From assembly GCA_964016885.1 (NCBI GenBank), contig OZ024741.1, forward strand, positions 213,342,001-213,406,000: 64,000 bases of DNA, in the 5' to 3' direction. Below the pieces are notes generated by a model. It searched no databases, was not told the origin of the DNA, and worked only from the letters and a program-made list of their open reading frames with translations. The position numbers were made by a program, and so were the translations under genes. Source of the DNA: Eledone cirrhosa. Taxonomy: Eukaryota. Position 1 is the stretch's first letter; every line of letters begins with the position of its first letter. Positions 7,861 through 63,729 of the stretch are shown in pieces.

Positions 7861-8164
7861 ATTGATATTATACTCCAGAAGAAACTTGTAGAGTGTTTCT
7901 AATCTGTTATAAACTAAATTTGTTGAATAACCAATAAATTAAATAACTTATTGCTTATATATATATATTTCAATGACCGCGTTCAGTATGAATCCGGTGA
8001 CAACATCAGGTATTCCGAAATTTATCCAACAAAGGAATATAATAGACACAATACAAGGGGCTGAAAAGCAGAGAGAGATACCAAGACGAGAAGGCGGCAA
8101 AAAATTAACAGTTGCTAGTCCGGGTGGCCACCTTCCAGGAATTAAACCAGTCCAGCCTCCTGTT

Positions 8165-11075
8165 ATTTTATAATAATTAACTCCCATGCTAATCTGATCT
8201 CCTAGGTACCGGAATCTATCCACAACTTCTATAGCACCCAACTGCATTTGAAAAATGTGTCTATCAATGCGACTTCTACTGTCTAATTTCCCTGTATATC
8301 TACTGCATACGTATTTCTCCCTACCTGTTAGTTTGCCTGCTATCCCACTACATCTCTTGTGTACCCAGGATCTGCATTGTGTGCATTTTATAGAATCATG
8401 CAGGTTCCTTTTCTACATATCGAAAATGGCCATTTCCCTGACGGAATCAGAGTGTCGACCTCTTTTCTACTCATCAACACTTTTGTCTTAGCTAGGTTCA
8501 CTCTCAGTCCTCTTGCTTCCAACTGCTGTTTCCATAGCCAGAATTTATTCTCTAGCTCCTCTACTGATTCTGCTATAAGAACCAGATCGTCAGCATAGAG
8601 AATTTCCCATGGACAGCCAGTCTTAAACTCCTCTGTTATGGCTCGGAGGACTATAATGAACAAGAACTCCATCACTTGCTTACTGAGATATCACAAACGA
8701 CTTACCTATGCTGTGGGGTACATTCTTCCTCGGTATTTGACAGCATCTGCCTGTTCCGCTGCCTAACTAGTAAGAAGTCAATCTGGCATATGTGCTCGCC
8801 TGATTTGTAGGTTATTAGGTGGTTGGTAGGTTTCTGGAATTTCCCATGGACAGCCAGTCTTAAACTCCTCTGTTATGGCTTGGAGGACTATAATGAACAA
8901 GAGCGGGCTGAGGACCGAACCTTCATGTACTCTTACTTGTATCTGTAATTCCTCACTAAACTCCATTCCTACCCTGACTTTACTGACAGCACCTCTGTAC
9001 AAAGTTTGCAATATCCTCACAAGCCATTCTTCAACACCTAGTTTCCATAGGGACCACCAGATGACAGATCGGGGTACCCTATCAAAGGCCTTCTCTAGGT
9101 CAAAAAAGGCTAAGTATAGTGGCTTATTCTTTTCTAAGAACCTCTCTTCTAATTGTCTCACCAAGAAGAGGGCATCTGTTGTACTTTTCCCAGGCACAAA
9201 ACCGAACTGAATCTCATCTAGTTTGACCCTTTCCCTAATTAGTTGTGCTAATATCCTTTCTACCACTTTCATAACCTGATCCATCAGTTTCATACCCCTA
9301 TAATTGCTCCTCTCCAGAGCATTCCCTTTAACTTTGTAGCAATTTATGAGAATATTGCTGCACCAGTCTTTGGTTATGACACCACCATATTTAGCCTGAT
9401 TGATGATGCGTGCAACCAGTTTAGTGCCTACGTCCCCTTATGCCTTCAGCATTACAGCAACTATCCCCGATGGTCCAGCAGCCTTACCATTTTTCATTTC
9501 CTTAACCGCATTTTGGACACTATATTCGTCAATCTCAATAGCTGGTCCCTCTGTCGGATCTATTGAGGGTAATTTCTCTCTCTCCCATTCGTTCTCCACA
9601 TTCATCAGTCTCTCATAATGACATTTCCAGGCCTCCTTTTTCTGACCATTCGTGACACTAAATACACCGGCATCATTCCGGACACATTTATCTCCAACAA
9701 CATCCTGATTTGCATTGACACACTACCTTGCAATGTGAAACACCGCACGCCTCGGATCTTCCCGTCGCAGAACATTGGCAAACCTCCTTCTCTCAGCCTA
9801 CCTGCGTGCTAAGTACACCTGACGTCTATCTTCTCTCTTAGCGGCTGTATATCCTTCTCTACTCCCACCCTTTTCCCAAGCCTTCCATGCTAGTCTTTTG
9901 TCTCTAATGGCCTTATCTACTGTGCTGTTCCACCACCAGGTCACTGCCTGTCTGGTTGGAGCTCTGCTCCAGCCACAAGTTTCATCAGTAGCCTGCAGTA
10001 AGTTGTCACGTAAGAAATTCCAGTTATTATCTGTCATACGTCTCTAAATCGTCTTCTTTTTCGTCATACACTTCTTGAAGGGCTTTCCTAAATTTGTATT
10101 TTAGTGAAAGGTCTTTTAGCTTCAAGACCTTTCTTATCCACACCTCCCTGTATGACTCATTCCATCTCTTGCTTACTGAGATATCACTAACGACTTACCT
10201 ATGCTGTGGGTACATTCTTCCCCAGGGTATGCCTTGGTATTAGACACTATCTGCCTGTGCCGCTGCCTAACTAGTAAAACGTCAATCTGGCTTATGTGCT
10301 CGCCTGATTTGTAGGTTATTAGGTGGTTGGCAGGTTTCTGGAAGTTAGTGTTGCAAAGAGTCAGTGTACTTGCATCACAAAATTCAAGAAGTCTCACTCT
10401 TTCATCATTTCTTGAGCCGTAACTGTGCTCACCATGTACCCCAGTGTAACCATCCTGGAGCTGTCCAACATGACCATTGAAGTCCCCTGCTAGCATAATG
10501 ATGTCTCCGTCCTCTGTCATTGCGGCTGTTTGTAAAAGTTGCTCGTAAAAGCAGTCTTTCTCTTCTTTGCCTAGGCCTGCTTGGGGAGCATAGATAGCGA
10601 TGATTGTCAGTAGTCTCCTGCCTACAACTAATCTAGGCTTAATTATTCGATTATTAACTCGAACTTCCTCTATTGTCTTATTAATCCATCTCTCAGCCAG
10701 GAAAATGCCTACTCCCCCTAACCCATCATCCTTATCTACCCAGAAAAGCTTATAGCTAAGATGTTTGCCTGCGACTAGTCTTGCAGAGGCACCTCTCCAT
10801 CTCACCTCTTGCACGCAGCACACATCCACATGCCTTCTCTCCAGCATCTCCGCTATTTCAGCAGATCTACCTGTGAGAGTGCCAACATTAAGTGTTGCAA
10901 CTCTGAGATGCGACGTCTTCATATTTTTTTTGTTGTTGTTGTTCCTATATACTTGTTGCTGTGCTTGTAGTTGTTTTTGTATTGATACACTGGTTGGATG
11001 CCCTTCCTAACACGAGTGCCACTTTACAGCATGGACTGGGTGCTTTTATTCGTGCCACCAGCACTAGAGAGGATG
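8165..11075 (-). mobile_element. RTE-clade LINE, APE endonuclease + RT, frameshifted and internally rearranged
   Basis: ORF 10173-10922 has APE motifs (TLNVGTL, CVQEVRW, GDFNGHVG, QID); 8778-9293 and 8388-8675 have RT motifs (QFGF, DLEKAFD, GSVLSPLLF, YADD); FRYLG at about 8200. Confidence 0.93.
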
Positions 11076-12639: not shown

Positions 12640-13165
12640 CACCGCCAAGGAAGCACCAGAGATGTCGCAGCCCCAGCGCGTGTTTGCGTGCGCATTATCA
12701 CCCACGGCATGCCCAGCCCTCCAGGCAACAGGTGTTGACAGCAGATGGATCCTCTGACCTGGGAGTACGTCCCTTCCATAAAAAGCGGAAGAGGAGGCGC
12801 TTCATTTTTGTCAGAAATGGGCCGGGGCAAGGCACAACGGTTAGGCGGTAGCAGATGACGGTTGCGATGAACGCATTCGCCAACTCTGCCCGACCTTTCA
12901 GGGACAGCTTTCTCTCAGCCCATTTCTGGGTGAGAGAGGCCTCCCTGTTCGTCACCTCGCTCCAGTTTTTCTCCATCTGGAGGTCCGGACCGAACCAGAT
13001 CCCGAGCAATTTAACCGGTCCTTCCGTCCAGCGCCCCACGACGCTCTCGGGCGGCATGGACTTGCCTCTGCAGGTGCTGAGCTGCAAGCCCACTGACTTT
13101 TCCTGGTTTAACTTTGCTCCTGTCACTGCTTCATATTCCTTGAGAGCGTTGCCGAGCATCTGGAC
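12640..13165 (-). pseudogene. L1/Tx1-clade LINE ORF2 fragment (RT thumb region)
   Basis: GAKLNQEKS, KLLGIWF, LSLKGRA, FRFLWKG, GGLGMP. Confidence 0.85.
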
Positions 13166-13453
13166 ATTTCCGGCACGTGACCGGGCCGCTCTGATTATGC
13201 GCCTGTAGACTGAGGAGTGTAAAACTGAGAGAGGGTGCTTGCCCTGGTGGTAAAGGTGGACGTGGTCTTTTGTGTGCTTTTCGCCACCAGTGACACTCGG
13301 AATTGTCCCCCTTATTGCGGAATTTTTGAATTTTTTTTTATTTCTATCTTCTTGTTATAACCTTTATTATACGGCCAAATCCCACCCTGGAGAGAACTCG
13401 TCCATGGATCTCGGGAATTTTACCCGCCCTAGATAGATTTTTATGTGTATATT

Positions 13454-13518
<65 letters not shown>

Positions 13519-13571
13519 ATATATATATATATGTGTATATGTGTTTGTATATGTATGTATATATATATATA

Positions 13572-13628
13572 TGTAAGTATGTATGTATACGTACATACAT
13601 ATATGTATACAGACGTACAGTAGCATGC

Positions 13629-13659
<31 letters not shown>

Positions 13660-14087
13660 CAGGTACACATACATATATGTACGTATCAGTTTAGCGGACG
13701 CTTATTATAACGCCCGCTTTGTCGTTTGTAAACAAACTGACAGCCTGAATTTATGCCGTACGGTGTTAAGGCAACCACGTCACCGTTTTGTTCAACACTG
13801 ACACAGGAACGATGTACTAGTTTCAAGCTTGTTAGCTATCATCAGCACCGTATGCCCTTCTACCAGATGGTTGAACGTTCGAAAGTATATACTTTCCTTA
13901 TGAAAATTAACGGCTGAGCAGACTAATTTGCATATCGAGTGAGTTCAGTCGGCCAGGCGCACCCAAAAAGATAAGTTGTAATAAAATGAAAACGAAATTT
14001 CATTTCTCACTCTTAATACGGCACTTACTTAAATGTAAGTATGTATGTATACGTACATACATATATGTATACAGACGTACAGTAGCA

Positions 14088-15869: not shown

Positions 15870-16119
15870 CTGGTACATACCTATTTGAATTGAAGGCCAT
15901 TTTGTAATAGGGGACAGGTAAGCGTAAAATTTAAAATTTAAATAGAGATTGCTCTGGAAAAATATATGGAATATTTCTGTAGCTTCCACAGCTTCTGTCA
16001 GAACATTTGCCCGGAGTTCAATCAACAAAAAGTTTGTTGTTGTATTTTGATCTTTCAAAATACGAAAATTACTAACACTTACCTCCTCTAAAAACAGTGT
16101 GTTGTCCTATCTATGAGCT

Positions 16120-16194
<75 letters not shown>

Positions 16195-16306
16195 GTAGAA
16201 AAGATAAGACACCTGAGAGAGAGACAGTTCGCCATCAGTCAAACAGGGAAAAAGCACCACATTAATGACAGGGAATAGCGAGAGTCTAGGCTCCGTTAAT
16301 TTATCG

Positions 16307-16362
<56 letters not shown>

Positions 16363-16593
16363 CGTTTCTGAATTTGTTTAGCAAGATTCTTTATCTGAAA
16401 TCGTGTGTTGAAACCGATATTGTTATACTTTGGGAGGTTCATGTTGCCAATAAGAAACACACGCACCAGTTGCTTTCACTTCAATTTATTATATATTTAT
16501 AAATTTATAAATTTACAAATTTACAAATCTACAAACTTATAAATTTCTGGTTGGTTGGTTGGTTCCACAACCAGATAGTTGTTTATATATATA

Positions 16594-16636
16594 GTCATAG
16601 TCCTTTCGTCACACACTCTGTGACCTCTTCAGTGAC
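16594..16636 (-). ncRNA. Minimal type I hammerhead (family B) in the PLE1 3' terminal repeat
   Basis: guca CUGAAGA g gucac-agagugu-gugac GAAA ggac UA ugac. Confidence 0.85.
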
Positions 16637-16871
16637 AGGGGATTCCTTTCTTCGTTTCTCTGCCTTTCCTTTCTTCTATCCTACGCCATTTTGTTTCTGT
16701 GTGTGTGTTGTGTGCTCAGTTTGCGCATGCGCCACATCCGGGTGTCTGTGTGTGTTTGTGTTCATTTTTCTATTTTTCTATTTATATTTTTTTTTCTATT
16801 TGTTTATTTATTTATTTATTTATTGTTGGTTGGTTGTTTGTTCTATGTGTGTGTGTGTTTTCATTTTGTCC

Positions 16872-19546
16872 TTAATTGTAAGTTGTGATGTTGCTGTTCC
16901 ACTCATATTTTCTATTTAATTTTGGTTTTAATTCTTTTATGCTTACTGCCTCTGTAATTTGCCTAAACATTGCATCTTTTCTGTGTGTGGATTCTATTTT
17001 TATTTCTATGCTCTCTAATCTACCCCTGTGTTCTATCTTAGCATGTTGGTAGAGCATAGATGATTCTTTATTATCTTGGAGGTCTCGCCAGTGTTCATTT
17101 ATTCGTTCCCCTATACTACGAGCTGTCTCACCTATGTACACTATATTTTTGTTTCTACATTGTCCTTCAGTACATCTTATGCTATACACTACATTTCTAG
17201 TTTTACAGTTAATATGGGGGCTTATTTTACAGGTTATACATTTCTTATCTATACATGAGGGTCTTTGGAACGGGTATGTCTTGCTAATAAGTGTTTTTAC
17301 GGAGGTACCAGGTCTTTCTACTATCTTAATATTGAGATTATGTTTATTTAGGGCCCTTCTAAATTTGTAGGCTAGTTCGCCTCTAGGGGTTGTATTGATG
17401 AACATTACACTCTGGTATTTATTGCTATCATACCATGAGTTTATTCTATTGGCCTTGTTCCTAGTTCTTTCTATTCTATTCCAAAATTTGCTCCTATACA
17501 AGGGGCAGGTCCCATTTATGTCATTATTTACCATTTTTTCCCATTTGGTTCTGGCTCCTTTATACACTCTGATTCTATCTCTCTGATTGTAGCCAGAGAA
17601 CTGCATACGGTGGATGAAGTGTTGTATGTGTCTCTCTAGTTCTTCGGGGTTGCACATGCGGGACACATTTCTCATACCCGTACCAAATCCGCAATCAGTA
17701 TGTTGATTTTGGTATGGTCCGAAATGGCCGAGATCCGGTGGATCAGATGTTTGGAAGTCATGGGTTTGGCATAATGGGAATGGAGGATTTGTTTTTGGTT
17801 GTTAATGGTATCTAACCAGAGCTCTGTGTCTAGTACAGGTAATCGATGGTTGGGGTGTCTACTTGGGTAGTCTATAGTAACTCTAATGCTCTGGTGGATG
17901 GAGTTTGCTATTTGCTGGATGCTTTCCATTGTGTTTTTCTCTAGTTCCTGACTGTTCTTTAGAGGGGGTGTCTTAACTACGATGTTTATATCATCTACGT
18001 AGCGGGAGTACATTATCAGGGTTAAGCTGTCTTCTAATTGTTCATTAAGTTTTTGTTTAAATCTACTGTCCCACCATACCATGAATAAGTTAGCTATGTC
18101 GCCTGCAATGCTAACACCAATGGCTGCTCCTTTCTCTTGGGCATATGTTTTACCATTAAATTTGAACATATGTTCCTTAAGGGTTAATTTTATGCTGGCC
18201 CCTACCGCATGTGCAATCATTTTCTTCAGTTCATCGTGGTTTTCGGGTGTCCGTATGGCTCTGGTCCACCCGTTCCATCTATCTGTGTGGGTTTTCTTGG
18301 CCATTGAGGTAATGGTAGGTGGTCTGCCTCTTGCTGGTCTTGTAGGGCACAGGTTGCTAAGGTCATAAGTGTCTAGGTAACTATTACTATGGGTAAGCCT
18401 AAGTAGAAGTCCCAGCTCACAGGTATCAATCCCACGGAACTCAACCTTGCTCTCGCTGATCATTTCTACGCATTTCTCCACAGCAAAATCCACGTCAATA
18501 GATGGATACAGGGACACAACATCCATACTGCCTATTATGCAGTTTGTTAGGTCCCCAGATCGGTTACCCGCGCCGATTCTGCTGAGGAGGTCCTCCGTGC
18601 TGTCACACACATCTGGGGACATCTCAATGATGGGGCGTATGATCAGGGAGAGGAAGTAGGACAGTCTGTAGTTACTAGCAATGTTAGCCCCACAGACTGG
18701 CCGTGTTGGTGGTCCCGCGACAGGGTCCCAGCCCGTTTTATCGTCTTTTCGAAGCCCATACAACGCCGGCACGTCATTGTTCCAGGCCTAGAAGTTGTTG
18801 GCAGTCCTTTTGTTGGGCTGCATTATATTCGTCCACATCACCATATGGGCATTGAGGGCTTTTTCTCTATCCTCATGCTCCTGTGTGGGTTGCATTGCCT
18901 GGATGTAGTTTGGCAGGCTGTCAACCGACATTCTGCCAGACTTGTCTGTTGGAAAACATGCTATCTCTCCATTACGCGAGCGCTGCATGAGCTTACGCAA
19001 GCCATTTGCAGATTCTTCTCCCAGTTGCTGGGCCTCTATTCTATTATGCTTCTTGCTATACTCTTCTATAATATTTCTAAGTTCGGATTTAGCTATACTA
19101 AATTGCGCTTCTGTTTGTTCATCGACCTGAGACGGCAACTGCGTGCGTTTGTTAAATGGCAAAGTCGTGGCGTGGACTCGTCGTAGGTCGAATGATTTAT
19201 CGGAGGGGTTATAAAACGGAGAGTTCCAGGCTGCTGCTTTATGTGTACTAGTGCTATTATTATTGTTAGTTGTGTTGTTTCTATTTCCACCAACAGCCTC
19301 AGCTTCATGGTTGTTTCTATGTCTCTCATAATTACTCCTGTCTCTTTCCACTGGCTCAATGTTGTTATCTACCCTATTTTGTGTGTCTGTGTGTTCGTCT
19401 TGGTTATTCTCTTTGTCCTTAGTCTCCCATCTCCTTTTCCTTTTAATCCTATTACTTTCTCTTATTTCTCTGATTTCTGTGCTACTGTCATTACTTGTTT
19501 TCTGTGTCTGTGTGTTTGTTAAGATTGTGGTGGTGGTGAGAGGCAT
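16872..19546 (-). pseudogene. PLE1 polyprotein (RT + C-terminal GIY-YIG); in-frame TAG at 18788 and frameshift at about 17675
   Basis: TDKSG, LYGLRK, SMDVVSLYPSI, QEKGAAIG, RYVDDI, LPVLD; CxxxxCxxC linker; NVVY..YIGETAR..RINEH..EA..PKLN. Confidence 0.92.
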
Positions 19547-19962
19547 TGAATGCGTGTGTGTTGTTGTTGTTGATGTGTGTTGTTGTTGATGTGTGTTGTT
19601 GTTGTCTCCGTGTGTGTGTGTGTGTTATCGTTGTTGTGTGTGTTGTTATTGTTGTTTGTGTCTGCGTGTCTGTTGTTGTTGTATCTGGGTATGTTGCTAT
19701 TGTTGTTGTTGTTGATGTGTGTGTTGTTGTTATTGTTGTCTCCGTGTGTGTTATCGTTGTTGTGTGTGTTGTTATTGTTGTTTGTGTCTGCGTGTCTGTT
19801 GTTGTTGTATCTGGGTATGTTGCTATTGTTGTTGTTGTTGTATTGTTGTTTGTGTCTGTGTGTCTGTTGTTGTTGGGATGTGTGTTGTATATGTGTGTGC
19901 GTATATTGTTGCTTTTGTTTTTGATGCTCCAGCGTAGTTTTGAAACGAAGAAAGGAATCCCC

Positions 19963-20007
19963 AGTCACTGAAGAGGTCACAGAGTGTGTGACGAAAGGAC
20001 TATGACT
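19963..20007 (+). ncRNA. Minimal type I hammerhead (family B) in the inverted 5' repeat
   Basis: aguca CUGAAGA g gucac..gugac GAAA ggac UA ugacu. Confidence 0.87.
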
Positions 20008-20237
20008 ATATATATAAACAACTATCTGGTTGTGGAACCAACCAACCAACCAGAAATTTATAAGTTTGTAGATTTGTAAATTTGTAAATTTATAAATTTA
20101 TAAATATATAATAAATTGAAGTGAAAGCAACTGGTGCGTGTGTTTCTTATTGGCAACATGACCCTCCCAAAGTATAACAATATCGGTTTCAACACACGAT
20201 TTCAGATAAAGAATCTTGCTAAACAAATTCAGAAACG

Positions 20238-20275
<38 letters not shown>

Positions 20276-20387
20276 CGATAAATTAACGGAGCCTAGACTC
20301 TCGCTATTCCCTGTCATTAATGTGGTGCTTTTTCCCTGTTTGACTGATGGCGAACTGTCTCTCTCTCAGGTGTCTTATCTTTTCTAC

Positions 20388-20466
<79 letters not shown>

Positions 20467-20849
20467 AGCTCATAGATAGGACAACACACTGTTTTTAGAG
20501 GAGGTAAGTTTTAGTAATTTTCGTATTTTGAAAGATCAAAATACAACAACAAACTTTTTGTTGATTGAACTCCGGGCAAATGTTCTGACAGAAGCTGTGG
20601 AAGCTACAGAAATATTCCATATATTTTTCCAGAGCAATCTCTATTTAAATTTTAAATTTTACGCTTACCTGTCCCCTATTACAAAATGGCCTTCAATTCA
20701 AATTTTAAAAAGAGAGGTGAAGGGACAAGTGAACTATGAACTTGTTACAGCTCACTGCCCCCCCCCCCCTCCGGCACCACAATAACGTCTACACTCGCTA
20801 GCAATAATGATAGCCTTTCCGTGGGAATTAGAAGGAACCGCGACATAAA

Positions 20850-21245
20850 TTGCAACTGCCGCGATAGCGGACGCGGGCCCCCTTAGAGGATACTGCTTGA
20901 CTGATAGGTTATAAATAGGTGCACTGTAACTAGCCACAATAGCGTTAAACATTATATAGGGGCTACCTCTGGTCCGTTCAAAATAAGATTTCGAACACAT
21001 CTCCACTCTTTCACAAATAAGAAATTAACGCACTCCACTTCGCTCGCGGACTACATCACATCATTAAAAAACTTAAACCTTAGCTTCTCCACGCACTGGG
21101 ATATTGTCGGCAGGGCTGCACCGTACAACTTCGGGAGGAGGTGCGATCTTTGCCTCATGGAGCTCTACCACATCATAAGAGCACCCCACGAGCAGTGGTG
21201 AAGCGACGATAAGCTGTACACATCGCTTAAAAATATCCTTCTTCA
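20850..21245 (+). pseudogene. GIY-YIG C-terminal fragment of a third PLE (absent from the ORF track)
   Basis: Hand translation CNCRD..VINRC..HYIGATSGPFKIRFRTHLHSF..STSLADYI..WDIV..CDLCLME..CTHR parallels ORF 48079-48564 and its continuation. Confidence 0.85.
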
Positions 21246-21390
21246 GATGTGATAAGGATGAGGAGTGAAACCGTATACCGAGTCTCCCTGCAACAAGTTT
21301 TAATACCCCGACGAGCAGGCGCTGCAAAAAACATCCGGAAACTAACCATACATCCCAGACCCACCTTCAAATGACCCAGGCGGGCAGGTG

Positions 21391-22953
21391 CAGCGTTCCT
21401 TTGTCAGGGTTGAACAAATGAGCAACGATGGTTGCTAGACACTGTACGGCTTAATTCGTGATGTTTGTTTACCGAGCATTATAATAAATATTCGGTGAAT
21501 CCATACGTACATATATATATGTGTGCATGTATATATATATATATACATACTACTGTACGTCTGTATACATATATGTATGTACGTATACATACTTATATTT
21601 AAGTAACAGCCGTACTAAGAGTGAGAAATGAAATTTCGTTTCATTTTTTCCGTTTATCGTTTTCGGTACCCCGGCCGATTAACTCACTCGATATGCAAAT
21701 TAGGCTGCTCATCCGTTAATATGCATAAGGAAAGTATATACTTTCAGACGTTCAATCATCTGGCAGGAAGGTATACGTTGCTGACGATAGCTAATAATCT
21801 TGAAACTAGTACAGCGTTCCTTTGTCAGTGTTGAACAAATGAGCAACGATGGTTGCTAGACACTGTACGGCTTAATTCGGGATGTTTGTTTACAAACACA
21901 CCGAGCATTATAATAAATGTTCGGTGAATCCATACGTACATATATATATGTGTGCATGTATGTATATATATATATACATACTACTGTACGTCTGTATACA
22001 TATATGTATGTACGTATACATACTTATATTTAAGTAACAGCCATACAAAGAATGGGAAATGAAATTTCGTTTCATTTTTTTCGTTTACCGCTTTCGGTAC
22101 CCCGGCCGATTAACTCACTCGATATGCAAATTAGGCTGCTCATCCGTTAATATGCATAAGGAAAGTATCTACTTTCAGACGTTCAATCATCTGGCAGGAA
22201 GGTATACGTTGCTGACGATAGCTAATAAGCTTGAAACTAGTACAGCGTTCCTTTGTCAGTGTTGAACAAATGAGCAACGATGGTTACTAGACACTGTAGG
22301 GCTTAATTCGGGATGTTTGTTTACATACACACATAGCATTATAATAAATATTTGGTGAATCCATACGTGCATATATATATATGTGTGCATGTATGTATAT
22401 ATATATATACCTACTACTTTACGTCTGTATACATATATGTATGTACGTATACATTATTATATTTAAGTAACAGCCGTACTAAGAGTGGGAAATGAAATTT
22501 CGTTTCATTTTTTCCGTTTATCGTTTTCGGTACCCCGGCTGATTAACTCACTCGATATGCAAATTAGGCTGCTCAGCCGTTAATATGCATAAGGAAAGTA
22601 TATACTTTCAGACGTTCAGTCATCTGGCAGAAAGGTATACGTTGCTGACGATAGCTAATAAGCTTGAAACTAGTACATCGTTCCTTTGTCAGGGTTGAAC
22701 AAATGAGCAACGATGGTTGCTAGACACTGTACGGCTTAATTCGGGATGTTTGTTTACAAACACACCGAGCATTATAATAAATGTTCGGTGAATCCATACG
22801 TACATATATATATATATGTGTGCATGTATGTATATATATATACATACTACTGTACGTCTGTATACATATATGTATGTACGTATACATACGTATATTTAAG
22901 TAACAGCCGTACTAAGAGTGAGAAATGAAATTTCGTTTCATTTTTTCCGTTTA
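21391..22953 (+). repeat. Family A tandem array (3.6 units of ~431 bp), HHRs at 21775-21817, 22206-22248 and 22639-22681
   Basis: CTGACGA at 21781, 22212 and 22645 (periods 431, 433), each acgttg CUGACGA uagcu-aaua-agcuu GAAA cuag UA cagcgu or a near variant. Confidence 0.93.
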
Positions 22954-23664
22954 TATTAATATATATTCTATTAGAATTGACCTAGAGCTAATAATATAAC
23001 CTTTATACTCATTTCTGTGACGTGTTAAAATTACCAACAGTCACATAAGGAAAGACAACTATATGCTATATAACACTCTATCTATTTCCACCATCAATTA
23101 GAGACTATATTTCTGTCATTCTACATGTCAGCTGAAGGAATACCAAAATAAGTCATCTTTGTCTATATTAGCAAATTTTATTTTCTACTTCTTTTAATAT
23201 ATTCTTCATTTTATTTTTATTTATTTATTTTATTATGTATTTGTTTATTTATTTTTTCCTTTCTCAGTTATTGATCTTCGGCCGTCATATCTACCTTCCA
23301 TTCCACTCTTTCTCTCACATGTTGTTAGTCTATTAACTTCATCTCAGAAAGTATACTAGAATTTTTATTTTTGGTCGACCCCGCAGCGGTAAAGCTGACC
23401 TGTGGAAAATTTTGATTAATGTATAAAGAGCTTAGAATTAGAGTTATAGTTTTAAGTTTGCTGTTCCATGCCTGCACACGAGTTTGACGAATTTCGGATA
23501 TTATCTTGGTTCTATGGACATTAAGTGACTGGGTGTACAAATCTTCCCCCTTCCGACCTCTTGATGGTATTTAAGTTCATTACAGGGTGATTTCGTATTT
23601 TTCTAAAACTTAGTTTCGATAAACGTGTTCTCCGGTGGTATTAGATCTCATACTAAAATATACC

Positions 23665-27196: not shown

Positions 27197-29042
<1,846 letters not shown>

Positions 29043-47106: not shown

Positions 47107-49355
47107 TAAAAAGTATGACCCCGACGGCAGAGCTCCAGCCGTTTCGACGGCTATTTCTGGACTAAATTAGAATTTTTAGCCTGGTGAATAAATCGCTGAA
47201 CTTTTCAAGGGGGTACTTCCTTATATGGGAAGATTGTAGTTGTGAAGAGGATTGGTTAAAATTTGTTGTAAACACAAATAAGTCTATCATGGCATTTGGT
47301 GGGAGGTAGGGGTGGCTGAACTTGCCTGTAGAACAATAGGGGTGTGAGTGGTGCGGTCAAGCGTTGAAAGTGATATGTATACAGCAGATTCTAAGTGTAT
47401 GAAGTGGGAGAGGGAGGTTATAGAATAGGTAAATCGAATGAGAGTAGGAGACAATAAAAGATAATAGAAATAAATAAAAATATATATAAAATTAGATAGT
47501 GAGAAATGAATAAAAATAAATCACAATGCTATCTTACAATTACAGGTTAATAAGTTGAGAATAGAAAACACTTGTAGTAAAAACTTGTAGTACCAGAACT
47601 GATAGAGAATTAAAGGGGTTTAACACGTCTGCTATAAGTAGTTAGTAAAACGTATTATGCCTATTCTATCTTTAAATTAAAGGGGTGGGGGAACTGATGC
47701 TACAGAAGCCCAATGGGCTGCATCAGGGTAGGCGAAGAGGAAAAGCAGTGGAGGAAGAAAATAGGGGGTGGAAGGAAGTGATAGGATGAGATAGGGGGAG
47801 GAAGAAGACAAAGAGGAAAAGAAAAGGAAAGAGATACATCTACCTAAGTAAGCTGAGGTTTCCCATAACTTATTCCGCAAGTAGGGAGTCTCAGCCTTTG
47901 TCTACCCACCCGGGTCGTTATGGGGTTTGAGGGCGAGGTAAGTCCTACGCAATCTGTGTTTGCATGCGGTTACCAGTTCCTCTTTCTTGTTTAGGAGTTG
48001 GTCCTTCGAAAACAGCATTTGTAATGTTTCCTCCGAGCATAAGTTACACGGACGGCGTCCTCCCGTGTAAGAGTTAGCTTAGGACAGTAAGCTCCAAGTG
48101 AGATTGTAAGTTATATTATTATCTTGGAGGTCCCAGATGTGGCCCGAAAGTGTAGTGGCATATCGCCGGGCCGGCTTTCGGAAAGTATGTCGGTGTTGGT
48201 AGAGCCGGGTCTTGAAGTCACACGCGGTTAATCCTATATAAGCTTTGTTGGAGGTATCCGTCCTCACGTTGCACTGGTAGATGACGTTACGTTCTCGGCA
48301 TTTGTTGTTGAGGGGGCACGTAGATCTATCAGGGCAGTTAGACCTCCTGGTCGGCTCTCCACTGATGTCTAGGTTATTTCTTCCATAGAGGTTGAGTTTT
48401 TTGATGTTTGAGGAGACGACGTTTTGTGCGAAGTTAGGTGTGGCTCTGTAGGAGAGTTTGATGGTGTTTTTGTTGATTATGTTGTGGTAGCGGTGTTGTA
48501 GTGGGAAGTGTTTTTCGAGGAGTCTAAAGAAGATTTTTCCCGATAGGTGTTGCCATCCCGGCATTATGGGGAGGATTGAACCACGTTACGTTGCGTGAGC
48601 GGCGGTGTCGCCTGCTGGTTACGCTAAGGGAAGCTGGATACAAGGATATTTCCTCCCGGAAGCCACTCCGATTGAGGGCCTGGTTGTAATGTGGCGCGTG
48701 TTCGTCGAATATCTGCTCATTAGCGGACAAACGAGATATGCGGAGGGAGATGTTTTTAACCAGGTTATTGGTGATGTTTCTAGGATGGTTAGAGCGGCGG
48801 TGGATGGAGTGAAGGTTGTCGTTTGGTTTCCTGTATGGGTAGTACAGATCATTTTCGAGGTTACGGGTAACGTCCAGGAAATTTACTCGGGTTAGGGACG
48901 TTTGTAGGGTGATTTTATATCCCCAGTCCCGGAAGAAGTTGATTAGTTGTTTACGGACCCGGTCTGTACTACTGAGGTTGTACCCTTTGAGGGTGGGGAG
49001 CAGATCATCCCAGTACAATCCACCGCCGAATGCAGGAAATATTTCGGTGAGTTTAAATAGTAGGAATAATCCTATAAGATCAGTGACCTCGGCCGAATCC
49101 GTCGCGCCCATACTGACGTCGAAGGGGGAGTCGGGAGCTCTCTTTATCCACTTAGAGTTGTCGAAAAGTAGGACTGTCTTCCTGGCGTGGAGAATGACAT
49201 TTCTTTCCTGCTCAGTGATGGGTGTGAGTGTTTCGGCAAATTCCAAGGCGGCCGTCGGGGTCATACTTTTTCCCATTTCCCACTCTACTGCCCTAAGTAT
49301 TGAGTACTCTGGTGCGTTATGGTCCATCTGGTTCCTTACCACAATTCCTTTGTTA
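47107..49355 (-). mobile_element. 5'-truncated Penelope-like element PLE2 with an inverted terminal repeat at its 5' end
   Basis: FDVSMGATDSAEV, GLYWDDL, VNFLDV, SNHP, WFNPP, NVIY..YIG..R..H, CNLC, CKHR; gccgtcggggtcatactttt at 49250 is inverted at 47110-47130. Confidence 0.92.
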
Positions 49356-49482
49356 TATATATATATTCGCCTGCGCTTGTATATAGAGGGTGAACCAAAA
49401 AATGTATACACACATTGATTACTTGTACAGGCTATATTTATTAGAATGCAGTTGAAGTGTGTATACATTTTTGGGGGACACC

Positions 49483-50875: not shown

Positions 50876-50989
50876 TTGAAAAAAATGAAAACGAAATTTC
50901 ATTTCTCACTCTTAGTATGGCACTTACTTAAACGTAAGTATGTATGTATACGTACATATACATATGTATACAGACGTACAGTAGCACGC

Positions 50990-51066
<77 letters not shown>

Positions 51067-51933
51067 TACACATATGCATACAGGTACACATACATATATG
51101 CACGCATCAGTTTAGCCAACGTTTATTATAACGCCGGCCGCTTTGTTCGTTTGTTTGTCAACAAAGCGAACAGCCTGAATTTATGCCATACGGTGTTAAG
51201 GCAACCACGTCACCTTTTTGTTCAACACTGACACAGGAACGATGTACTAGTTTCAAGCTTGTTAGCTATCATCAGCACCGTTTACCCATTTGCATATTGA
51301 GTGAGTTAAATCGGTCAGGCATACCGAAAACGATAAGTTGAAAAAAATGAAAACGAAATTTCATTTCTCACTCTTAGTATGACACTTACTTAAACGTAAG
51401 TATGTATGTATACGTACATACACATATGTATACAGACGTACAGTAGCACGCATATATATATACATATATATATACATATATACACATATGCATACAGGTA
51501 CACATACATATATGCACGCATCAGTTTAGCCGACGTTTATTATAACGCCGGCCGCTTTGTTCGTTTGTTTGTCAACAAAGCGAACATCCTGAATTTATGC
51601 CATACGGTGTTAAGGCAACCACGTCACCTTTTTGTTCAACACTGACACAGGAACGATGTACTAGTTTCAAGCTTGTTAGCTATCATCATCACCGTTTACC
51701 CATCTGCCAGATAGTTGAACGTTCGAAAGTATATACTTTCCTTATGAAAATTAACGGCTGAGCAGCCTAATTTGCATATTGAGTGAGTTAAATCGGTCAG
51801 GCATACCGAAAACGATAAGTTGAAAAAAATGAAAACGAAATTTCATTTCTCACTCTTAGTATGGCACTTACTTAAACGTAAGTATGTATGTATACGTACA
51901 TACACATATGTATACAGACGTACAGTAGCACGC

Positions 51934-51968
<35 letters not shown>

Positions 51969-52392
51969 CATATATACACATATGCATACAGGTACACATA
52001 CATATATGCACGTATCAGTTTAGCCGACGTTTTTTTTCAACTCATCGTTTTCGGTATGCCTGACCGATTTAACTCACTCAATATGCAAATTAGGCTGCTC
52101 AGCCGTTAATTTTCATATGGAAAGTATATACTTACGAACGTTCAACTATCTGGCAGATGGGTAAACGGTGCTGATGATAGCTAACAAGCTTGAAACTAGT
52201 ACATCGTTCCTGTGTCAGTGTTGAACAAAAAGGTGACGTGGTTGCCTTAACACCGTATGGCATAAATTCAGGCTGTTCGCTTTGTTGACAAACAAACGAA
52301 CAAAGCGGCCGGCGTTATAATAAACGTCGGCTAAACTGATGCGTGCATATATGTATGTGTACCTGTATGCATATGTGTATATATGTATATAT

Positions 52393-52424
<32 letters not shown>

Positions 52425-52488
52425 GTATATATATATGCGTGCTACTGTACGTCTGTATACATATGTGTATGTACGTATACATACATAC
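50873..52488. repeat. Family A array: about 2.5 units (-) then 1 inverted unit (+); HHRs at 51239-51281, 51653-51695 (AUGAUGA) and 52165-52207
   Basis: Homology to the other arrays; strand switch at about 52030. Confidence 0.92.
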
Positions 52489-60566: not shown

Positions 60567-61601
60567 GAGAGAGGGATGGTAAGAGAGAAATAGAGAGAGC
60601 GCAAAGAAACAAATGGTTGAAGCTTATCATCAAATTGTTTTATTCAGTAAAATCCACTTCAATAGATATATGATGCAGGTATACATAAGACGACATATCT
60701 TGCTATAACCTAGTTTTAATATAAAGCCGTTAGGAAACAAGAAGCTCGTTTTACCACTTTACACCTCTCACACGCAGTCACCTTCTTCAATCTATCGGAT
60801 AAAATATGCACATTATTGCCATGCTGCAACACCAAATCGCCATTTTAAGGAAAGCATCGAGGGAACTAATTGCTATTAGTGACAAAAATATATAAGATAC
60901 TGGAATAATTGTAGCTCCAATCTTCAGTGACATAGTAATTCTAGTGTGTGCATGTACGTGTGTTCATATATGTGTGTGTATATATGTGTGTGTATATGTG
61001 TATATGCATGGATGCATGTGTATGTATATGCGCGGGGACATAGAAATAGTCGGGCTGTAAACCCGATCGCGCAGTTAAACCACTGGGAGTGAAGCGCCCC
61101 TAGCCTTTCTCAGGTCATTCTTCTCGGAGAAGGCAACTCAGGAAACTGGGATAACTCCGATATAAAACCTGTGGCTCAGTAGTTACCGATGGTGTTGATC
61201 TTTTCTTCTTTTTGGGTTATAGCTATTGTCGTTCAGAGAGTGGGATTGGCTCAGTGCACAGTCTTTCCTCACTTTAAAAAATATCTTCACGCACAGGCAT
61301 TGCACGATAGAATTAATTAATTATTATTAATAATGGTATATCATGCAATGGGCATACTCGATAACGAGGGGGCAGCCATCATATGTATATATATATATAT
61401 ATATATATATTTATCCTTTGAGCCCTCTTTGGATTTTAGTCTTCGCATTTACTATTATTATTATTACTATATATATACATATGTGTATGTAAGTATATAT
61501 ATATGTGTATGTATGCAAATGGTAAACAGAAATAACGACACAATCGGTACAGTATATGGAAGGGATATATTAGGTTAACGCTTGATATAGCAGGAAGAGG
61601 G

Positions 61602-61637
61602 TCTTAACGTTTCGGACGCTAGTCCTTCATCAGAAGA
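61602..61637 (-). ncRNA. Minimal type I hammerhead (family F)
   Basis: ucuu CUGAUGA a gga-cuagcg-ucc GAAA cg UU aaga. Confidence 0.75.
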
Positions 61638-62049
61638 AAGAATGAGAAATAAGATATGTTGAGGGGACGGGCGGGTTGGAATTGGAAGAAATGTCTTTAG
61701 ATAAAAATAACAGGTCCATTCATGTTGACATCTCTTGTGTGTGTATGTGTAGAAAATATCCGTAGGCGTGAAAATGAAAAAAGGGAAAACAGTGCTCAAC
61801 CAGGGAAGAGAGCTGTTACATTATATTATTTATCTTCATACACAGAAGAAAAGCGTTAACTAAGGTTTCAAGGCCCAATATTGTCCATATCTCCAGATTG
61901 TAAGAGAGATCAAAATTTTGACCTAATCTTTCGGCACATAGACCTCTAAACTCCTGAAGGTCACAATTTTTATCCCTCTTACAATGAGGAGATATGGTCA
62001 GTATTAGGCAATGAAATATTAGGTAGCGCTTTTCTTCCATGTATGAAGA

Positions 62050-63427
62050 TTAGGGTGTTCCATAATCCCACATTTTACACAAAAGTGTTTTTTTTTCTTA
62101 GATCTCTATGCATTTTCTCATGCCATTTTGTATAGTATGCTTTATAATGTAATTGTGATTATTTCAGAGTAATTTAAGCCTTGCCTAATAGTTGCAAATT
62201 GGCAGAATAATGGCAGAAACCATTGGGCCTAGTTGTAGCTACTCGCTCCGTTGTGATGATCGAGAAATATGGCTCCTGGGGCAATATGTTACATCCTTTT
62301 CACCAAACAAAATACCCATAAAGAGGGATGTTCTAAGATATTTCTTCAACCTGAAAGATGGTCCTATGAAACAGGAAAAGCATGTGAGCTTCAATGGTGC
62401 TATTGCGGATAGACTTGTGATGGAAGTAGTTAGTCAGTGGGAAAAAGTTTGGTGGTGCGACTCAACGAAAAGACAAAGTGAAACTGAAAATTATGAACAT
62501 GTACAGTGAATACAGAAATTTACAAAAAAACAAAGGTTCTAAGTCAAACAAAGAAAAGGAAGCACTATTTATTTCTGAATTGGATTCGTATTTCTACATT
62601 GCAAATACTGATGCTGAAAAGAAAATTTTGAAAGACCGTCTTCGTAATAATGAACAGAAAATGGAAGATGCTGCATTTCTCGAGACCCTGCGTTACCAGA
62701 CAAAAGTATCTCTGGGTGCTGAAGACAAGGTTTACCAGAAAAAGGTATCTTCAAAGTTTAAGCGTGATCAGGTTTCTGTGGCTCGTCGAGAGTCAGAGAA
62801 CCATAGAGAGAGTTTGTCAGGATCTGTAGCAGCACAACTTCCACGTAATGAACTGAGTGATTCAAGTTCAACCAATGATGAAACTGAAGATGAACAGGAT
62901 CCTGAATTTCAGGCCTCAAACCCACCCAGAGACAGCTCAAAGTCAGACAAAAAACGAAAAATCGAGCTGGAACTCCCAAAGAATCCATTTCAAAGTCCAA
63001 ATATTTCTCTAATGGCTGATCGTTTAAACCTGACACTGGGCCAGAGAACAGTATTTATAGCATCGATTATTTCTGAGGGTGGGACTGACATAGACGCCAC
63101 AACTCTCTCCAAGAATAGTAGCAGACGTGCAGCTAAGAAGATCAGAACTGTGGGGGCTGAACACATAGAAGGAACAATTTGCTGTACCAGACTTTGTTAC
63201 CTTACATTGGGATGGAAAAATAATTCCTGGTGACCCATATAGGCTATGTGTGCGAGCTGCTGGAACTCCGGACTTCAGAGAAGGTAAAATCCTCGGTGTT
63301 CCCATAATTTCTGATGGCACTGGAACCACCCAAGCCAAAGTATCATTTGATCTTGTTAAAGATTGGAATGTTGATGGGTCTGTGGTGGGTTTGGTCTTCG
63401 ACACAACTGCTTCGAATCTGGATGGAA
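62050..63427 (+). mobile_element. DNA transposon with a frameshifted, 3'-truncated DDE transposase, probably hAT superfamily (hATm-like)
   Basis: Starts TTAGGGTGTTCC; frames give LHWDGK, ILGVP..GTG and FDTTASN; cut off at (TA)n. Confidence 0.72.
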
Positions 63428-63729
63428 ATATATATATACATATACATATATATATGTATATATTGAAAGAGAGAAGAATAACATGGTCAACAGTACAAAA
63501 GAGGGTTTTGTTTACAGTATTAACAATTGTTAATATATATGTGTATATATATATATATGTATATATATGTATATATGTATATATATAATGGTATTAGAAT
63601 CAAATAGTATGGTAGAATATTAAATGTTAAGTGTTAATTGAACAAGTACTTTCATGCTTTCGCAATCTTCAGGTTCATATTGTGTGGTGACAGTCAAGTT
63701 TACAATTTTCAACTATATATAGATGTATG

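Follow-up and report, generated by a model that had tools for sequence, protein, structure and literature searches.

Results

A hammerhead-bearing tandem repeat in Eledone cirrhosa

The sequence considered here, referred to as the window, is a stretch of 64,000 nucleotides of the Eledone cirrhosa genome (GenBank assembly GCA_964016885.1, contig OZ024741.1, positions 213,342,001 to 213,406,000 of the forward strand). At 21.4-22.9 kb it harbors a tandem array of a repeat denoted family A, with a hammerhead core in every unit and no open reading frame of at least 100 aa. Within the hammerhead copy listed in Table 1, cleavage is predicted after position 21811, and stem II carries a G-to-T change at 21798. 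The hairpin H3 had been proposed to occur in three copies with the same ATAATA loop and differing stems, and all three are found as described; the variants of stem I (ACGTTG/CAGCGT in the 21.4-22.9 kb array, ACGGTG/CATCGT in the remaining copies) and of the hairpin H2 (AGCAAC/GTTGCT or GGTGAC/GTTGCC) likewise agree with the original prediction. The number of subfamilies was given as three and is actually larger: 208 unique copies form 25 clusters of at least two copies, with intermediates present.

Table 1. Family A copies and structural elements in the window (hairpin energies and pairings are predicted)
Feature	Position	Strand	Remarks
Family A tandem array	21388..22954	+	period 433 bp, about 3.6 units; 5'-truncated, stops at the fixed 3' end of the family
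Promoter-like block	21693..21744	+	ATGCAAAT (21693-21700) and TATATA (21735-21740), 42 nt apart
Long extension of stem I	21750..21836	+	21750-21756 with 21830-21836; 21760-21765 with 21823-21828
Type I hammerhead	21775..21817	+	stem I 21775-21780/21812-21817; core CTGACGA and GAAA; palindromic helix III
H2 hairpin, AGCAAC/GTTGCT	21842..21857	+	outer pair G-C, G-U or A-U by subfamily
YAYRRC word, weak helix H2a, hairpin H2b	21866..21898	+	H2b: TGTTTG/CAAACA
H3 hairpin	21899..21926	+	stem 11 bp, -14.7 kcal/mol; loop ATAATA at 21910-21915
Terminal hairpin H5 and fixed 3' end	22923..22954	+	YTTAT abuts AT-rich target; putative start site of reverse transcription
H3 of subfamily A2 copy	13693..13718	-	stem 10 bp, -15.3 kcal/mol; loop ATAATA; element at about 13560-14010
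Two A2c copies	27386..28070	-	H3 5' arm lacks one G (bulged intermediate)
Family A copy	28520..28771	-	stem I in G-U state; H2 and H3 A1-like
H3 of subfamily A3 copy	52308..52331	+	stem 9 bp, -13.7 kcal/mol; loop ATAATA; inverted arm of the 50880-52440 insertion; CGGC duplication in 5' arm versus subfamily A2c

A Penelope-like element at 16872-18787 (-) extends over two frames with weak Pfam matches to a reverse transcriptase and a GIY-YIG endonuclease; a C-x4-C-x2-C linker is recognised by eye, its repeat carries a hammerhead, and inverted flanks lie at 15883-16658 and 19942-20703. A second Penelope-like reverse transcriptase/endonuclease region lies at 48079-49471 (-), and an endonuclease-like fragment at 20788-21108 (+) directly precedes the family A array. 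In a tblastn comparison of two elements from the window with 290 loci, each with flanks of about 1.5 kb, neighbours were found but no sense-oriented open reading frame fused to the upstream side of a family A unit. The window further contains LINE-type endonuclease and reverse transcriptase fragments at 7948-11006 (-) and 12698-13354 (-), an open frame of 267 aa without a Pfam match at 62430-63233 (+), and hammerhead-like motifs of other repeat families at about 61600-61641 (-) and 63630-63680 (+/-).

Copy number and insertion pattern

The genome searched comprises 3.0 Gb in 1,796 contigs. The exact hammerhead pattern has 24,873 matches; the hammerhead core followed by TTATAATAA 85-115 nt downstream has 25,268 matches versus 36 for the reversed pattern, so this arrangement is not due to chance. 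Monomers have lengths of 431, 465 and 502 nt, a GC content of 0.36-0.37 and one type I hammerhead per unit. As read from the sequence, the latter matches the canonical animal design (PMC4209133), with a helix I of 6 bp, a helix II of 4 bp and a palindromic helix III of 1-2 bp. An Rfam scan gives no hammerhead family among the best 150 of 284 matches, which consist only of sub-threshold microRNA matches on (AT)n. By these sequence features the repeat fits the definition of a non-LTR retrozyme (PMC7229834, main text).

The copies are arranged as tandem arrays with inverted arms, and inversions are frequent among the insertions. Among the 148 internal 3' ends mapped in family A, two neighbouring positions account for 83, almost always at a junction with (AT)n, and 110 lie within 21 nt; in family D, 13 of 15 ends map to the equivalent place. 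The 5' ends of family A are scattered, with never more than 4 per position. Since a fixed 3' end joined to (AT)n is combined with scattered 5' ends, the repeat is assigned a Penelope-like mode of insertion, with fixed 3' end, 5' truncation, tandem and inverted arms and a microsatellite target. The scatter also led us to reject the idea that arrays start at the cleavage site, as the array of the window does.

Very young arrays of family D (466 bp) are 100% identical on several chromosomes (L161-L185), with one further array just past the end of the window (L157). Family E (L186-L210) has an end about 20 nt after an H3-like hairpin and a second end about 26 nt further, similar to a Penelope tail. 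At four loci (L323, L267, L276, L029), insertions show clusters of A-to-G changes on the hammerhead strand, some of them common to both arms; these likely represent edited RNA that was copied into DNA.

Predicted fold of the unit

The predicted order of elements is a hairpin with ATGCAAAT, a second one with TATATA, the extended stem I around the ribozyme, H2, H2a/H2b, H3, a long AT-rich stem, H5, and the fixed end. The YAYRRC word and the TGTTT..AAACA hairpin are found again in distant families (partly read by eye). An alternative in which the segment 3' of the cut pairs over long range with the one following H2 was rejected, as the folds preferred the extended stem I. For one unit of the window the predicted folding energy is -136.3 kcal/mol (z = -6.4), compared with -118.1 kcal/mol (z = -6.3) for the reverse strand; the z-scores being similar, energy alone cannot choose the strand. 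The sense fold is more stable in 11 of 11 young consensuses, and in only 4 of 8 old single copies.

The words ATGCAAAT and TATATA, both located within predicted hairpins, form a promoter-like block that resembles the upstream region of U6 in the same genome. Two of the six U6 loci viewed (L296, L297) have ATGCAAAT at -76/-77 and TATA at -30, and one U6 cluster carries a one-mismatch form of the octamer; the exact word is absent within 200 nt of 3 U2 loci. Among the retrozymes, ATGCAAAT(N)AG precedes a TATA-like word by 41-46 nt in families A, D, E and older ones. Families D and E were found independently of the octamer word and have the same layout as family A. Older families, found via the word (11,091 and 304 pattern matches, with mutated A copies making up most of the 304), share it too; both layouts were compared by eye. 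One retrozyme subfamily lacks 8 nt just past the TATA word. The U6 and U2 genes occur in tandem clusters (C19:31.78-31.84 Mb and C3:307.35-307.45 Mb).

Inherited changes tend to preserve base pairing

The RNAalifold check suggested with the original prediction, applied to 14 family A copies, returns 47 pairs, of which 5 are changed on both sides, but the underlying MAFFT alignment misplaced H2 and the outer part of H3. We therefore extracted the stems by anchors and mapped changes at 57 base pairs on a tree of copies. Changes common to at least three separate loci are denoted inherited and those confined to one locus private; the former have passed through a source element, the latter mostly represent decay. 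The cleanest set consists of 234 of 292 copies (137 loci, midpoint root), the other 58 being dropped because their loci are pattern-biased or A-to-G-rich.

In this set, pairing (Watson-Crick or G-U) is kept by 22 of 28 inherited changes versus 99 of 277 private changes (p = 2e-5). The difference holds outside the ribozyme (15/21 versus 58/160, p = 0.004), for H2 and H3 together (14/16 versus 31/80, p = 6e-4), and for H3 alone (10/12 versus 21/49, p = 0.02). An earlier set of 208 copies gives 24/32 versus 195/488; a set of 292 A and 36 D copies, rooted on the locus L276 that is itself A-to-G rich, gives 31/41 versus 196/526. Inherited breaks of pairs also exist (6 of 28 in family A).

Individual positions exhibit stepwise paths. 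The outer pair of H2 follows the subfamily series G-C to G-U to A-U; pair 3 of H3 follows A-U to G-U to G-C, and pair 9 passes from C-G via G/G to G-C. One stem I position occurs as A-U, G-U, U-G and rarely U/U. A bulged H3 was later mended, either by a duplication of 4 nt (A3) or by a deletion in the opposite arm. Family D has double changes of its own in stem II, H2 and H3.

Given this excess of pair-keeping among inherited over private changes, we take the pairing to be under selection, including outside the ribozyme, and the target of that selection is probably the folded RNA. The claim that selection extends beyond the ribozyme is thereby borne out, with stepwise G-U paths and double transversions. 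Against an explanation by structural RNA stand the small number of independent events (only 28 inherited ones in family A), the choice of helices and anchors after inspection of the sequences, a tree built from only 275 nt with mosaic copies included, a reverse strand that folds as well as the sense strand, and a non-significant blind scan of G-T and A-C pairs (see below).

RNA strand, editing and DNA-level explanations

That the constraint acts on the hammerhead-sense RNA, as the original prediction had it, is supported more weakly. Inherited steps from Watson-Crick to G-U outnumber those to A-C by 10 to 1, versus 71:66 for private steps (p = 0.012; 234 copies), and in the source lineages C-to-T changes (G-U-making) and G-to-A changes (A-C-making) stand at 3:0. 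Outside the ribozyme, however, the inherited ratio is 7:1 (p = 0.06), and a strand-symmetric scan that treats G-T and A-C alike gives 28:19 (p = 0.24; control 41:35). Moreover, A-to-G changes make up 7 of the 10 inherited steps to G-U, so that editing could supply most of them. The G-U pattern might then be a mutational footprint, in which ADAR converts A to I in double-stranded RNA before reverse transcription and the edits hitchhike in the absence of selection on structure. Locus L276 carries 8-11 A-to-G changes, most of those in L323 and L276 are common to both arms of one insertion, and 3 of 170 loci are A-to-G-dominated outliers versus none for T-to-C, two of the three having been fetched with patterns that demand one stem II change. 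We nevertheless consider this explanation improbable. Editing cannot yield the double changes C-G to G-C, G-C to C-G, A-U to U-A or C-G to U-A, and the pairing bias survives removal of single A-to-G events (14/20 inherited versus 85/262 private, p = 0.001). The private excess of A-to-G in pairs (53:13) falls to 14:7 (A-to-G versus T-to-C, p = 0.19) once biased loci are dropped. The footprint also requires identical sense-strand helices in vivo; readings by editing and by selection alike therefore imply helices in the sense-strand RNA. As a source of G-U steps, A-to-I editing is possible.

Somewhat less probable still is that the stems are kept at the level of DNA, by template switching or conversion between the arms of a palindrome, or as cruciforms or protein-binding palindromes. 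In its favour, both strands fold well, inversions are frequent in the insertions, and some double changes (H3 pair 7; family D) fall on one branch without a sampled intermediate. Copying one arm onto the other would, however, erase G-T pairs, and these persist: the G-T at H3 pair 5 is retained in 168 of 196 copies, which disfavours conversion between arms. G-T intermediates form distinct subfamilies, and inherited A-C is rare (10:1), which likewise speaks against an origin at the DNA level.

The AUAAUA loop

The loop of H3 had been taken as conserved, possibly as a tertiary contact or a recognition site for reverse transcriptase or another protein. The 9 nt word TTATAATAA is indeed invariant in 19 multi-locus subfamily consensuses while the stem varies, and a Penelope-like element of Anolis starts reverse transcription in a stem-loop about 85-92 nt past the hammerhead cut, near the position of H3 here (PMC11167929). 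An invariant run of 9 nt is unremarkable, since 66% of columns are invariant and 250 columns contain six such runs of at least 9 nt. One subfamily, first met in a single sampled array, lacks exactly the six loop bases; its loop-less form of 26 nt has 4,530 exact genome matches (control 0), in many arrays and on both strands. In a sample of 65 copies from 17 loci, 35 are identical and 58 have a standard hammerhead, and 10 of 11 array ends viewed lie at the usual (AT)n junction. Judged by these features, the loop-less copies are a young subfamily still inserting normally. Their H3 retains a four-base loop and an A-C mismatch at a predicted -5.8 kcal/mol only, so even the H3 stem appears weakly constrained. 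Families D and E carry other loops at this place, four monomers contain no complement of the loop, and the 3' ends of insertions map past H5, about 170 nt from the loop, rather than at H3. Because the loop is deleted in thousands of copies, AUAAUA is very unlikely to be a needed recognition site, and a required role is largely refuted for mobilisation; the loop may have a modulating role.

Discussion

Proposed mechanism

The hairpins belong to a non-coding hammerhead retrozyme with an RNA that is predicted to form a series of stems, and we think it likely that the lineages that keep these stems are those still copied by a Penelope-like reverse transcriptase. Transcription of the hammerhead strand would yield multimers of the unit, which would be cut and might then be circularised. 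An autonomous element would provide the enzyme, which would nick (TA)n, prime at UUAU just 3' of H5, and copy one to many units. H3 would serve as a paired structural element that renders the RNA compact and nuclease-resistant and stops neighbouring segments from misfolding the ribozyme, its loop sequence not being read. If RNAs with a compact, paired fold survive better and are copied more readily, the stems would be kept while the AUAAUA loop is free. Editing of A to I likely feeds some A-U to G-U steps, with a later U-to-C change locking G-C.

A bolder reading, which we regard as doubtful, takes the ladder of subfamilies as a natural mutational scan of the RNA cargo of a Penelope reverse transcriptase. 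The parts common to divergent families, rather than the AUAAUA loop, might then form a cis signal bound by the enzyme, with ADAR editing feeding the G-U intermediates. The common fold would consist of the long stem I, H2, the YAYRRC word, the UGUUU/AAACA hairpin, and the terminal hairpin before UUAU.

In the literature compared here, the cis needs of animal retrozymes for borrowing a Penelope-like reverse transcriptase are unsettled. The family offers ready-made natural variants, in which paired stems are favoured, one loop is deletable and copying proceeds from one fixed site; fewer candidate parts therefore need to be tested. Self-paired retrozyme RNA is already known, as are compensatory changes in the hammerhead stems of such repeats (PMC2837043). 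The present analysis adds the quantified pairing bias and the loop-less subfamily; it defines no new kind of element.

Comparison with known systems

Metazoan non-LTR retrozymes have been described (PMC7229834, Cervera and de la Pena 2020; Li et al. 2026, 10.64898/2026.07.22.740005) and, according to a recent argument, descend from Penelope-like elements (bioRxiv 10.64898/2026.07.22.740005). The repeat shares with them short non-coding tandem and dispersed units of low GC, one type I hammerhead with a weak palindromic helix III, tens of thousands of copies, a highly self-paired predicted RNA, and co-occurring Penelope-like elements; its units (431-502 bp) are slightly above the quoted 150-450 bp. 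The sections of these papers compared here contain neither a pair-by-pair test of helices outside the ribozyme nor a mapped fixed 3' end, and PMC7229834 does not mention octopus in its main text. A wider literature search, covering the main texts of freely accessible papers, found no pair-level covariation test outside the hammerhead in animal retrozymes. The main text of the Octopus vulgaris repeat annotation (PMC13282606) does not contain the word ribozyme; its supplements may list these families.

Like Penelope-like elements (PAc of Anolis, PMC11167929; Neptune/Naiad, PMC8557442), the repeat has a fixed internal 3' start, is truncated at the 5' end, forms tandem and inverted arms, occurs at (TA)n or AT-rich targets, and carries a hammerhead. 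It differs in that it has no open reading frame and a canonical hammerhead, theirs being minimal; no autonomous element sharing its pLTR turned up among the 290 loci searched. Reverse transcription here would start at least about 275 nt beyond the cut, on the far side of H5, whereas the PAc stem-loop lies about 90 nt past it (PMC11167929).

In the pDo500 satellite of cave crickets, compensatory changes in the hammerhead stems were taken as evidence of constraint (PMC2837043). Family A is likewise a hammerhead-bearing tandem repeat with compensatory stem changes; here the compensations reach hairpins outside the hammerhead, whereas those described for pDo500 are located in the hammerhead stems. 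Finally, the combination of a hammerhead repeat with an internal snRNA-type promoter, putative in our case, is known from newt satellite 2 (Coats 1994 as cited in PMC2220036; Green 1993). The newt promoter is cited as Pol II (PMC2220036), whereas the block found here resembles the upstream region of U6 rather than that of U2.
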